The notes below the pieces were generated by a model. The model worked only from the letters and a program-made list of their open reading frames with translations, was not told where the DNA came from and did not search any database. A stretch of DNA of 64,000 nt from Candidatus Rhabdochlamydia sp. GTDB lineage: Bacteria; Chlamydiota; Chlamydiia; Chlamydiales; Rhabdochlamydiaceae. The first letter of the stretch is position 1. Each line of letters begins with the position of its first letter. The translations under genes and the position numbers were made by a program. The stretch lies in NCBI GenBank assembly GCA_051648645.1, contig JBOFFP010000012.1:113857-177856 (forward strand), written 5' to 3'. Shown here piece by piece: positions 48,228 through 52,878 of this stretch.

Positions 48228-51200
48228 CTAGCAAAGACACAAATTCTTTTTTTTCTCTAATTCATAAAGACCCTTTATTATCTCAGCAGCAAATATTATG
48301 GATTTCTCTTCAAGAAAGGGGTCTATTCCAATTAGCCTATTACAATGCATGTGTATGAAACTGCGCAAAATTTTCCTCCCGTTAGAGGAAAGAAAGTTAA
48401 TGTGTTCTGCATTTTGGACATATTGACTACAAGCTGATCTTCTTAAAAGAAAGCTTTGTTTAAGCAAGCAAGGCTCTTTATTGGTTTTTAGAGAAATAGC
48501 AAGGTCGAGTAGTTGTTTTTTATGTAAACGGTATCCTTCAAGAGCTTTTTTAGAAGAAAAACACTGTGTTAAAAAGGTGATTTGATCCTCTTGAGACAGA
48601 TTTAAACAAGAAAGAAAATCTATAATGCTTAAGGCTGCTATTCCATAAATGGGTAAAGATGGGTTTTTTGGACAATTCTGCAAAAGAGAAATGCACACCA
48701 TGCTATCAGCATGAAAGAGCGTTTCTGCCGATTCTATGAGGGTTGTACCTCCATATCTTTCCAGTTCACGTTCATAGGAATGAAAAGAAATGTCTTTAAT
48801 AAATTTGTCTTTAATAAGCTTTTCGCTCCAACTGTAAATGATAGGTAAGATGGTTTGCAAAATTTGACAGGCGGAGGATTTCACGCGTAAACGAATATGA
48901 GGACCTACAAAGTTTTCTTCGTAACGTATATAAAACCACTTTTCACACATTTTTTTTTCTACAATCTCTTGCATAAAAGCAGGGATAGCTTTTTTGAGGA
49001 GCTCTTCCTGAATATTTTTACAACAAAAAAGCTTGATATAAACCCAATCACTACCTAATCGATACGTTCTTTTTTCCATGCAAGAGTTTTCTATTTGAGG
49101 ATATATAGAAGGGGTGTGCATGAGAGATGCGTTTTTTAATAATGGAATGATAAATTCTGTGAAGTAAGTCCCTTGACTGCCTTGAACCCAAGCAGATTTT
49201 TCTAGGGAGATTTTTTCTATTAAACACACTTTATCATTTTTAACTAAGTGGCTTAATATTTGCAGAAGGTGACTTTCTTGTTCTGTATCTAGCAATAAGT
49301 ATTGATCGTAATGAGTCATTGTAACAAAGCGGCATACATTCCACTTTTTTAACCATGTCTTTAAGGCCTGTTTAGAAATATCGGTTTTTTTCAAAGAGAT
49401 ATCTTCTGTGCGAAGATTCCATCTTGCTAAAGAAAGATATGTTTTATTACACCGCAGTCTTGGTAAATAGGAAAAATGCTCCAATTGATCCCAACGAATG
49501 CCTTGTAAAGGGTTTATATTCCCTTTAGAAATATCTAATAAAAATTGAAAAGGAAGGGGTGCTAAGTTTTGATTGACTGCATTTCCAGTTATTAAGATCA
49601 GCTCTTTATTAAGCTGTTTGGAAAATAGATATAAGCTATTTTGAGAAGCTCCTACGTATAAATCTTCAGTAGAAATGGTATTTTTTTCATTAGAATCGTT
49701 TGTAGGAAACACAAGAGTAAAATTGCGAAGGGGTTTTCCTATTGCAACATTCCCAGCGCTGGTAGAAGCAGGTAACCAAGAAAAATGTACAAAAATTTTT
49801 TCTGGATCTAACCGCTGTTCGTGTGCATAAGCTTTTAGAAGAGCTGCCTTCGTTTCTTTAGGAAGAACGTGTAAAAATCTTCCAAATGTATTGCCTACTT
49901 GTTGACTTATCTGCGCTAAACCTAAGATCAAATGAAAATTTCCAGCATCTACAGCAGCTTGATCTATGGCCGATATTTCGCAAAAAAGCTCTAAAGAGGT
50001 AGGGATGGCATCAGAGTGAGGGTGTTTTTTGAGGTATTCCTTAATCTCATCCTCTGAGAGCACAACTTCTCTTTCTCTATGATAAATGGCTTCTTGATAT
50101 TTCTTTGATAAGAGTTGTTCAAAAGGAAAGCTTTTCTCTTTTTGGTCGGTTGTAGATAAATAGCAGGAAGGTATTCCCAATCCACTATTCTCATTAATGA
50201 GGTCAAGAAAAGGGACTAACTGCTCCGTTCCATATTTTTCCAAAAATTGAAGATGGTAGTCGTGTAACTTTTTTTTTCGTGCATTAGAAGTACTTACTTT
50301 CCAGATTAGAGTAGCAATATCAGCAGCTTCTTCCGCTACCTTATGCGTTAATGTGCTTTTAGAAGAAAAAGAGGTATCTGCTTGAATGAAGTTACTGACC
50401 TGATTGGGGTCTTTTTTGTTAGGATACATTTCACATAATATTTCGTGGACTTTTTCAAGAGGTTGTAGTCCACAGCCAGGCATCATTGCATTGTATTGAT
50501 TGAGACATTCCCGTAATGCTGTAAAAATATTTTCTAATTGGGGAGCATTTTTTTTTAAACAACTAAGGAAACTTGTAAAAGGATCATCCGTTAATAAATT
50601 GGGTGCTAATTCTGAGACAATAAACTGATTTTTAAACATGTCATGCAAGACACCTTTAAGCTTATTTTTATCTAGATGGGAAAATTCTTTAATGAGCTTA
50701 TCTTCTAAATCTTTGTATAAAATCCAGTCTGAACTATTTTCTAGTAAAAAATCTGTTAGAATGGATTTTTTAATGGATTTTTCATTATAACTCACTTTTT
50801 CCCAATCTTTTCCGCATAATAAAAATAATCTATTAGCGTAACACACAATGGGGCTATTAGCTTTGATTTTGCAGTTTTGTAAGATTTGCATATCGCTTTC
50901 TAATGTATGGATTACTTCATAAAGCCATTGCATATTGGGTCTAGCCAATTTATTCCGTTTGTTTGCATCAAAAAAGATCTGCGTTTCTTGGTCAATTACG
51001 CCAAAGCTTACAGCTGAACACAATCCAAAAGGGGTAGAACGTGTACTCATCCTAATTAAATAGCGCAATAGGCTAAAAAATTTTTTTTCAGAAATAGAGT
51101 TGTTTTCTTGCCTATCTTTTTGCAAAAAAAAATATAGACTTGGGCTTGCTAGAAAAACAGCTTCTTGAACAAGAGGATCAGAGAAGTACTCAGAAAGGAT

Positions 51201-51308
51201 TTGGTTGGGCGTTTTTTTTGAACAAACTTCCATAAAATACTCTACAGGTAGTAAAGGGCTTCTGAGCATGAAAAAACCTGCAGGAAAAAAAACTTTAGAG
51301 TCAGTCAT
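48228..51308 (-). CDS. lanB: Class I lanthipeptide dehydratase LanB (glutamylation + elimination domains)
   Basis: MLRSPLLP, EAVFLASPSL, RYLIRMSTRSTPFG, YLPRL, WVYIKL, WFYIRY..PHIRLR, YERELERYGG, FHADS, IHMHCNRL. 1026 aa. Confidence 0.95.
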   Translation of the reverse strand: MTDSKVFFPAGFFMLRSPLLPVEYFMEVCSKKTPNQILSEYFSDPLVQEAVFLASPSLYFFLQKDRQENNSISEKKFFSLLRYLIRMSTRSTPFGLCSAVSFGVIDQETQIFFDANKRNKLARPNMQWLYEVIHTLESDMQILQNCKIKANSPIVCYANRLFLLCGKDWEKVSYNEKSIKKSILTDFLLENSSDWILYKDLEDKLIKEFSHLDKNKLKGVLHDMFKNQFIVSELAPNLLTDDPFTSFLSCLKKNAPQLENIFTALRECLNQYNAMMPGCGLQPLEKVHEILCEMYPNKKDPNQVSNFIQADTSFSSKSTLTHKVAEEAADIATLIWKVSTSNARKKKLHDYHLQFLEKYGTEQLVPFLDLINENSGLGIPSCYLSTTDQKEKSFPFEQLLSKKYQEAIYHREREVVLSEDEIKEYLKKHPHSDAIPTSLELFCEISAIDQAAVDAGNFHLILGLAQISQQVGNTFGRFLHVLPKETKAALLKAYAHEQRLDPEKIFVHFSWLPASTSAGNVAIGKPLRNFTLVFPTNDSNEKNTISTEDLYVGASQNSLYLFSKQLNKELILITGNAVNQNLAPLPFQFLLDISKGNINPLQGIRWDQLEHFSYLPRLRCNKTYLSLARWNLRTEDISLKKTDISKQALKTWLKKWNVCRFVTMTHYDQYLLLDTEQESHLLQILSHLVKNDKVCLIEKISLEKSAWVQGSQGTYFTEFIIPLLKNASLMHTPSIYPQIENSCMEKRTYRLGSDWVYIKLFCCKNIQEELLKKAIPAFMQEIVEKKMCEKWFYIRYEENFVGPHIRLRVKSSACQILQTILPIIYSWSEKLIKDKFIKDISFHSYERELERYGGTTLIESAETLFHADSMVCISLLQNCPKNPSLPIYGIAALSIIDFLSCLNLSQEDQITFLTQCFSSKKALEGYRLHKKQLLDLAISLKTNKEPCLLKQSFLLRRSACSQYVQNAEHINFLSSNGRKILRSFIHMHCNRLIGIDPFLEEKSIIFAAEIIKGLYELEKKKNLCLC

Positions 51309-51326
51309 TTATATTCCTAAATGCAT

Positions 51327-52631: not shown

Positions 52632-52677
52632 ACCATTTTCCTTTGCATTGATAACGAAGTAAAAAACTTCAAGTTAT

Positions 52678-52878
52678 TTACTTCTCATATGGGGGAGGAC
52701 ATGTAGCACATGTGTGAGCACATGTATTGTAGCCAACAGCCGTATAGTACTGGTCTTTGTATTTATGAATCATTGTGCTTGTTTTGCAATCTAGATCAAA
52801 GACTTCACAATTTTCCTCTTTGTTAGGTGCATTTTTTCTACTATCTATAAAAAATGTATTGTCTCTTTCAATTCTCAT
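52678..52878 (-). CDS. lanA: Class I lanthipeptide precursor LanA
   Basis: FDLD leader motif at aa 27-30 and Thr/Cys core TAVGYNTCAHTCATCPPPYEK. Has an AAAGGAG RBS and lies directly upstream of lanC. Confidence 0.9.
   Translation of the reverse strand: MRIERDNTFFIDSRKNAPNKEENCEVFDLDCKTSTMIHKYKDQYYTAVGYNTCAHTCATCPPPYEK

Follow-up and report, generated by a model that had tools for sequence, protein, structure and literature searches.

In a 64,000-nucleotide stretch of DNA from Candidatus Rhabdochlamydia sp. (contig JBOFFP010000012.1, positions 113,857 to 177,856; hereafter the window, numbered from its first letter, with G000 denoting the genome it comes from), translation of the open reading frames (ORFs) places three consecutive minus-strand genes in the order lanA-lanC-lanB. 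We read them as a functional class I lanthipeptide operon in the Rhabdochlamydia chromosome, to which we give a probability of about 0.8 and for which function at the level of the product is predicted from genes, domains, catalytic residues, a leader box, purifying selection and a chromosomal context that we observe at this site. The genes are:

48228-51308, minus strand: lanB, full-length class I dehydratase, 1026 aa, with PF04738 and PF14028
51327-52631, minus strand: lanC, class I lanthipeptide cyclase, 434 aa, with PF05147
52678-52878, minus strand: lanA, precursor, 66 aa, with an FDLD leader box and no family match

The spacers measure 46 bp between lanA and lanC (52632-52677) and 18 bp between lanC and lanB (51309-51326), precisely the gaps listed in a first-pass annotation of this DNA, whose description of a precursor with an FDLD leader, a LanC with intact GFAHG, WCYG and CHG motifs and a full-length LanB is borne out by the translations and family searches that follow.

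LanB matches PF04738 (Lant_dehydr_N) over residues 44-681 (E 9.5e-140) and PF14028 (Lant_dehydr_C) over residues 755-1000 (E 4.1e-50), with glutamylation and elimination domains both present, and NCBIfam returns the thiopeptide-type bacteriocin biosynthesis (elimination) domain. It aligns near end-to-end with class I dehydratases of known structure (9G04, E 8.4e-92 over residues 11-1011; MibB 5EHK, E 4.1e-72; NisB 4WD9, E 3.2e-49); the entries 9G04/9G05, named 'thiopeptide-type bacteriocin biosynthesis domain containing protein' by their depositors, we take to be MadB. When 75 LanBs (the tree sample described below) were aligned, 54 columns proved at least 93% conserved in the 56 LanBs outside the chlamydial clade, and the window LanB retains 46 of them. 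Position by position, NisB R14, Y80, R83, R87, T89, W616 and H961 correspond to R16, Y83, R86, R90, T92, W630 and H986 of the window LanB, while NisB R786, R826 and E823, whose roles are known from NisB structural work, correspond to R808, R851 and E848. For NisB in its native producer, the available text of a mutagenesis study (PMC4341554) describes Y80F and H961A as abolishing dehydration, R83A/M, R87A, R14A and W616A as impairing it and T89A as costing one dehydration. As for the co-substrate, ARAGORN finds one tRNA-Glu(UUC) gene in the genome, on contig C10.

LanC belongs to PF05147 (LANC_like, E 8.6e-59) and has MadC (8BYK, E 3.8e-61 over residues 40-429) as its closest solved structure, with NisC matching at E 2.5e-26. 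Its translation contains LGFAHG (H221), RDAWCYG (C292) and FCHG (C341, H342), and H221, R288, C292, C341 and H342 align with H228, R294, C298, C344 and H345 of MadC, which the available text of the MadC paper (PMC9889658, where 8BYK is MadC) gives as zinc ligands and proposed acid/base residues. Judged by these alignments, the stand-alone LanC keeps a Cys-Cys-His zinc site together with the acid/base His and Arg.

The precursor LanA, for which Pfam and NCBIfam scans gave no family match, has its FDLD box at residues 27-30 and combines Thr46, Thr52, Thr56 and Thr59 with Cys53, Cys57 and Cys60 in a C-terminal core of the last ~21 residues (…YTAVGYNTCAHTCATCPPPYEK). Absent from this core is a nisin-like N-terminal motif (ITSxSLCTPGC-like), which we take to form rings A and B of nisin-like lipid II-binding lantibiotics. 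The FDLD box is common to 21 precursors from 14 loci of the chlamydial clade, with L29 invariant and D28 and D30 at least 90% conserved, and FDLD-type precursors are recognised in 16 of the 21 loci of that clade. The same four residues form the leader box of MadA, where their replacement by four alanines abolishes MadC binding, again in the available text of PMC9889658. Among the LanA orthologues of the window and of G006 and G003, two of the four same-genus relatives used here (G002, G003, G006 and G007), 19 of the 23 invariant columns fall within residues 1-38 and the cores are unrelated; a leader that is kept while the core turns over is the signature of a precursor of a ribosomally made, post-translationally modified peptide (RiPP) in use. 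A strong Shine-Dalgarno sequence (AAAGGAG) lies 7 nt ahead of the lanA ATG. With LanB, LanC, a leader-boxed Thr/Cys precursor and a tRNA-Glu gene, the locus would therefore qualify, on its sequence, as a class I lanthipeptide cluster; it is not of the canonical lantibiotic operon type (nisin, subtilin, epidermin), there being no LanT, LanP or LanI/LanFEG.

A Pfam scan of 8 window ORFs plus 27 further ones of at least 150 aa found no ABC exporter, S8 protease or ABC-2 immunity gene, and tblastn with LanT, LanF, LanE, LanP and LanR from Bacillota gave no match between 40000 and 60000. The first-pass annotation had likewise seen no lanT, lanP or lanI/FEG in the window and had assumed that export and maturation are supplied from elsewhere; the absence holds and extends, for C39 and S8, to the whole genome. 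The genome search it suggested for C39-ABC transporters and M1, S8 or S9 peptidases gave 0 hits for C39 and S8 peptidases in G000, no M1 peptidase above cut-off and S9-like matches that are weak only. G000 does encode three S41 peptidases, far from the lan loci; for export it offers nothing but two generic ABC proteins of the MsbA type, at C1:105 kb and C1:232 kb, each distant from the two lan loci of the genome. This layout is shared by the chlamydial clade. Across 21 of its loci (320 kb), for which surrounding ORFs were scanned with Pfam (14, 45 and 75 proteins) and the DNA was searched by tblastn with LanT, LanF, LanE, LanP, LanD and LanR from the Bacillota neighbours, LanT-, LanP- or LanFE-like genes were found in 0/21. 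We rejected ABC-ATPase matches in loci L016 and L013 as LanT or LanFEG candidates, as they belong to Zn/Mn importer operons. A second LanC paralogue occurs in 8/21 loci, a LanD-type flavoprotein in 4/21 (one frameshifted), an opposite-strand M4 peptidase in 1/21 and a MatE transporter beside LanB, without LanC, in 2/21. Six Bacillota loci scanned alike served as positive control: a LanT-type ABC exporter stands beside LanB in five of them, LanFE-type matches (short ABC ATPase, ABC-2 permease or both) occur in four, an S8 LanP in two and a regulator in five.

The tree behind these comparisons holds 75 LanBs, namely 71 of the best 80 pattern-selected hits (nine loci were dropped for having no LanB ORF of at least 800 aa) and four copies from G000, G006 and G002, and was built with IQ-TREE in quick mode (LG+G4, midpoint root). 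Nineteen of its rows form one chlamydial LanB clade with a Shimodaira-Hasegawa-like approximate likelihood ratio test (SH-aLRT) value of 100; 12 are titled Chlamydiota, four come from G000 and its congeners, one is titled Verrucomicrobia and two only 'uncultured bacterium'. Together with 17 Bacillota rows the clade makes up a group of 36 rows (support 99). The window cassette belongs to a LanB lineage restricted to chlamydiae. A LanB phylogeny had earlier been proposed as a means to identify the donor: what stands is that the chlamydial clade adjoins Bacillota LanBs, whereas a donor rests on the midpoint root and a biased sample, and the Bacillota origin that we infer for chlamydial LanB depends on both. 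Within the single genus there are three LanB sublineages, each with support 100 (window and G006; the C1 copy of G000 and a 'Chlamydiae bacterium' metagenome-assembled genome; G002 and Parachlamydiaceae), a pattern that suggests transfer inside the phylum or else ancient paralogy with later losses. Counting G000, 7 of 61 close relatives have PF04738, and five of the eight congeners lack LanB; the phylum-wide sample gives 41 of 401 genomes (30 of 212 genera), all 41 from the same order as G000.

The same genome holds a second class I lan locus outside the window, on contig C1 (L005 6756-13875). It encodes a 436-aa LanC, and of its six precursor-like ORFs one lies between lanC and lanB and the other five are arrayed in tandem upstream; the six have a common DLYDLDIELK-type leader and differing Cys-rich cores. 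Its LanB is only 31% identical to that of the window. Given this second locus, and LanB in 41/401 genomes sampled in the phylum, the cluster is not an isolated oddity. Immediately upstream of the C1 locus are genes for a HAMP-domain adenylate cyclase and for a 714-aa protein without known family. Elsewhere in the clade, L022 (520-723) and L046 (4157-4390) encode precursors whose cores start ITSKSLCTPGC and ITSHVGCTPGC, starts that we take to resemble the lipid II-binding N-terminus of nisin and that, by analogy, point to a possible antibacterial action for those two loci. In L022 the core ends in Cys-Cys, a LanD flavoprotein is encoded as well, and lanB is followed by a gene of beta-lactamase fold. 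At L055 (9286-9852), a clade locus titled 'uncultured bacterium', no FDLD-type precursor was found and a 188-aa ORF with two Nif11 domains adjoins lanB, which may represent a different leader type.

Orthologous cassettes in G006 and G003 sit elsewhere in the chromosome, beside a helix-turn-helix (HTH) gene, citrate synthase, malate dehydrogenase and EamA, a neighbourhood that maps to contig C4 of G000 and has no lan genes there. Window and G006 cassettes are 72.5% identical in DNA over 4,387 bp and their LanBs 65% identical. Compared with the G006 orthologues, the ratio of nonsynonymous to synonymous divergence (dN/dS) is 0.216 for lanB (dS 1.02) and 0.229 for lanC (dS 1.09), with 0.059 for thrS in the same comparison (dS 0.94), all of them rough figures given that a dS of ~1 is near saturation. 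They fit lan genes that diverged at the pace of the genomes, with selection purifying but relaxed, and open frames of 1026 and 434 codons in 35% GC DNA with dN/dS of 0.22-0.23 are far beyond chance. In G006 the end of lanB is overlapped by a gene (L015 13022-14044) for an S41 peptidase of the C-terminal processing type that carries a hydrophobic segment at its N terminus, which makes it a candidate for a dedicated leader peptidase in the orthologous cassette; as part of the window cassette it was rejected, there being no tblastn match in G000 at E up to 1.

G000 comprises 1.67 Mb in 12 contigs, with 93% completeness and an estimated contamination of 0.24%. On either side of the cluster the flank order ParA-ThrRS-p862 ... 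OMP285-OMP419 is kept in G007, G006 and G002 at 74-95% protein identity, GC content is 0.34-0.36 across the cluster as in neighbouring DNA, and the other large window ORFs are ordinary chromosomal genes (sigma-70, RecC-, RecB- and RecD-like, MreC, ThrRS, adenylosuccinate lyase). What lies between p862 and OMP285 differs from genome to genome: a 188/189-aa gene and a 1100/1113-aa gene in G006 and G002, transposase fragments (a 337-aa ORF and two 352-aa ORFs) in G007. Compared with L105, L106 and L107, the slot at 48184-53216 is a variable hotspot in the genus, filled by the lan cassette in the window genome. By tblastn, a 56-aa ORF downstream of lanB matches, with 69% identity across 45 aa, the 3' end of the ORFs of 1100 and 1113 aa in L106 and L107, and from this match to the C-terminal end of the large slot gene it follows that the lan cassette has taken the place of most of it. 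Past the lanB stop, homology to the lan cassettes of G006 and G003 continues for 27 bp (to ~48201), and homology to the G006 and G002 chromosome at the window site restarts at 48183. Direct or inverted repeats were sought at the cassette borders, where there were only short AT-rich matches at chance level and no att-like repeat. Seen in this way, the cassette of ~5 kb is an accessory or mobile element in a variable chromosomal slot. The further features of the locus are:

48007..48028, minus strand: terminator-like hairpin downstream of lanB, 8 pairs with a T-rich tail, within the 56-aa remnant ORF
48014..48184, minus strand: 56-aa ORF, C-terminal remnant of the ~1100-aa slot gene (tblastn), not biosynthetic
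48184..48227, no strand: downstream junction of lan cassette and host chromosome, from homology breakpoints
52639..52699, minus strand: weak hairpin over the lanA stop codon and the lanA-lanC spacer (RNA fold), suggestive of a possible attenuator
52923..52952, minus strand: promoter-like site upstream of lanA, TTGAAA, 18-nt spacer and GATAAT, 10/12 consensus matches

The promoter-like site, ~45 bp upstream of lanA, has the top score in a scan of 47900-53400, and is a consensus match only, in a region with 9 such sites against a shuffle mean of 17.2, i.e. fewer. The 862-aa gene upstream of lanA (p862) was rejected as a member of the cluster, being found in the same place in congeners without the cassette there; its orthologue in G006 (L100, G006:C1:32879-35434), with family unassigned, has one in-frame TGA.

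Other parts of the window hold features of separate note. A 2410-aa, mostly ankyrin-repeat protein is directly followed by a 922-aa divergent SecA-like protein without a match to the SecA wing or scaffold (5605-15609), and the two may be a dedicated secretion pair. The stretch at 20596-26060 has the lowest GC content (0.295-0.315), a strong negative GC skew and two ORFs (843 and 821 aa) that match no Pfam family. At 57776-59308 a chromosomal ParA-type ATPase precedes a UPF0137 (PF03677) protein (E 3.9e-80), a pairing known from chlamydial plasmids. A gene for an AAA_14/DUF4143 ATPase is found no more than a few kb from the lan cluster, in the window (45339-46745) as well as at an unrelated locus of G014 (L013 3242-4453), which may be coincidence or mark a mobile element.

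Among characterised systems the closest solved homologues are those of maddinglicin (Mad) from Clostridium maddingley, which shares with our locus a full-length LanB, a separate LanC and the FDLD box; unlike it, the window cluster resides in a Gram-negative obligate intracellular chlamydia, encodes an unrelated core and belongs to a genome without dedicated transporter or protease. With nisin (Lactococcus lactis) it has in common the class I chemistry, conserved counterparts of NisB R14, Y80, R83, R87, T89, W616 and H961, the motifs of the NisC zinc ligands and a leader box of the F(N/D)L(N/D) type, but it lacks equivalents of NisT, NisP, NisI, NisFEG and NisRK, has Asn for NisB D121 and is without the A/B-ring motif in its core, a motif that two other clade loci do have. 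The nearest Bacillota loci (Marininema halotolerans L099, Alteribacillus L033, Alkalicoccobacillus L052) are adjacent in the LanB tree, with 28-30% LanB identity, yet these three have a LanT-type ABC exporter beside LanB, LanD and LanF-type ABC ATPases. L099 and L033 moreover show ABC-2 permease matches, L099 an S8 LanP and a regulator fragment, L033 a two-component system and L052 an RNPP/HTH regulator, none of which is present in the window cluster.

In the literature, the available text of a paper on Ca. Algichlamydia australiensis (PMC11317633) reports a 'lanthionine synthetase' orthogroup and calls it absent from other known chlamydiae, and that of another (PMC12506125) mentions 'nisin-like BGCs observed in Chlamydiota' (BGCs, biosynthetic gene clusters). 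Both mentions take up a sentence or two, give no analysis and concern the same phylum and the same enzyme families as we do; nothing in these texts deals with Rhabdochlamydia lan genes, their precursors or the missing accessory genes. The claim of absence from other known chlamydiae, as it stands in that text, is contradicted for LanB by our survey (41/401 genomes). The main text of a lanthipeptide survey across 100,000 genomes (PMC7268733) has no word beginning 'Chlamydi', though its supplements could list such hits, and our search of the literature, subscription-only papers being outside it, found no paper that links Rhabdochlamydia with lanthipeptides, the Algichlamydia paper mentioning the genus in an unrelated context. 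Against this searched literature, the chlamydia-restricted LanB lineage, its consistent loss of accessory genes and the presence of LanB in about one-tenth of sampled genomes are new.

Several of our observations weigh against a working operon. The window LanB departs from 8 of the 54 near-universal columns, one of them conspicuous: the position of NisB D121 is N125 here, while Asp is what 55 of the 56 LanBs from outside that clade have, as do the three solved ones; the G006 orthologue has Asn there as well and the G002 LanB Ser. The dN/dS of the lan genes is ~4x that of thrS, which means relaxed constraint, and the near-saturated dS makes even that comparison a loose one. Relatives of the cassette are decaying: on C1, the frame of lanB is broken at nine consecutive A, leaving 90 aa and 932 aa (through homopolymer error, a genuine frameshift or phase variation), G003 has lost ~1.3 kb from within lanB, and that of G261 has four in-frame stops. 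RNA-level signals are weak, with the hairpin over the lanA stop reaching -14.3 kcal/mol (z -1.97; 9 of 200 shuffles fold equally well) and four terminator-like hairpins in the region against a shuffle mean of 3.6, which is no enrichment. Together with five LanB-free congeners out of eight, further fragmentary or stop-bearing LanB copies (G208, G278, G369, G198 and G301 in addition to G261) and a genome without exporter, protease and immunity genes, the decaying copies and the Asn may be taken to describe a non-functional relic, a cassette once acquired, now silent and heading for loss as in reductive intracellular genomes. We regard this as improbable. Frames of 1026, 434 and 66 codons run uninterrupted in AT-rich DNA, and dN/dS of 0.22-0.23 at dS ~1 against the G006 orthologue implies that constraint persisted since the species split. 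All catalytic residues of experimental importance are kept, the leader of LanA is conserved while its core has turned over, and lanA has a good Shine-Dalgarno sequence and a promoter-like site. We judge Asn125 not to be disabling because NisB D121A dehydrates almost like the wild type in vivo, with a near wild-type pattern of 8, 7, (6) in Table 1 of PMC4341554; the Asp-to-Asn change thus appears tolerated, all other NisB residues that were found important for dehydration in that study being retained. Nor is the segment likely to stem from contamination or from a mis-binned contig of a free-living bacterium, for instance one of the Bacillota, whose LanBs are indeed adjacent in the tree. With flanks syntenic on both sides with three Rhabdochlamydia genomes, GC content uniform, LanB placed inside a clade with no row titled outside Chlamydiota/Verrucomicrobiota, orthologous cassettes in two congeners and a low genome-wide contamination estimate, contamination is excluded for practical purposes and this alternative effectively refuted already. 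An intact lanA-lanC-lanB cluster in a chlamydial genome, as first annotated, is what these flanks support, and the contaminant that was then named as its possible undoing is not what we find.

If, as we favour, the operon is functional, the question shifts to what its peptide does. Our best guess, a tentative one held at somewhat less than even odds, is an antibacterial or competition peptide acting in or around the host cell, an antagonistic role being favoured by hypervariable cores, multi-precursor arrays and the two clade cores that resemble the nisin N-terminus. Counting against it, the window core has no recognisable lipid II-binding motif, and a secreted antibiotic is harder to picture in a Gram-negative cell without exporter, protease and immunity genes. 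A somewhat less likely possibility is that the cluster works but makes a non-antibiotic peptide that acts on the host cell or serves as a chlamydial signal or developmental factor. This would explain why exporter and immunity genes are needless, and it agrees with a layout devoid of them in 21/21 chlamydial-clade loci when neighbouring Bacillota loci have such genes, with a window core that lacks the N-terminal motif of L022 and L046, and with the intracellular lifestyle of the host, one common to chlamydiae. On the other hand, the cores of these two clade members look nisin-like to us, hypervariable cores and arrays such as the six precursors of the C1 locus are typical of diversifying antagonistic peptides, and an outer membrane could give self-protection.

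How the predicted operon may work can be sketched from its homologues. LanB would bind the FDLD leader of LanA, glutamylate Thr46, Thr52, Thr56 and Thr59 with Glu-tRNA(Glu) and then eliminate to yield dehydrobutyrines. LanC, with zinc on C292, C341 and H342, would add Cys53, Cys57 and Cys60 to these and so close at most three methyllanthionine rings within the final ~21 residues; a ring pattern of 46-53, 52-57 and 56-60, with two intertwined rings, is possible and a guess only. Since dedicated genes for export, leader cleavage and immunity are absent from the genome, maturation and release must fall to general functions: the leader may be removed by a housekeeping protease, for instance one of the three S41 peptidases, and a generic MsbA-like exporter or lysis of the bacteria or the host cell may release the peptide.

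To our knowledge, work on lanthipeptides has dealt almost wholly with Gram-positive bacteria of free-living habit and with some Bacteroidota. In the present case a canonical pair of class I enzymes is under purifying selection in an obligate intracellular bacterium with a genome of 1.67 Mb, and its stripped-down layout recurs in ~10% of sampled chlamydial genomes. For RiPP enzymology this provides natural LanB/LanC pairs whose activity, if any, needs no LanT, LanP or LanFEG, and the clade offers many unexplored core peptides, including nisin-like cores and a six-precursor array. One may go further and envisage, as a speculative and on balance unlikely scenario, that chlamydiae keep a lanthipeptide cassette lineage of their own (about one genome in ten), exchanged within the phylum and shorn of accessory and regulatory genes on entry, whose peptides are released by lysis at the end of the developmental cycle, by a generic exporter or by type III secretion, and take effect within the host cell or inclusion, for instance on co-infecting bacteria. 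If true, this would be a new form of intracellular lantibiotic warfare or defensive symbiosis. As it stands, the locus provides a concrete small-molecule candidate for the interplay of chlamydiae with co-infecting microbes or with their host.

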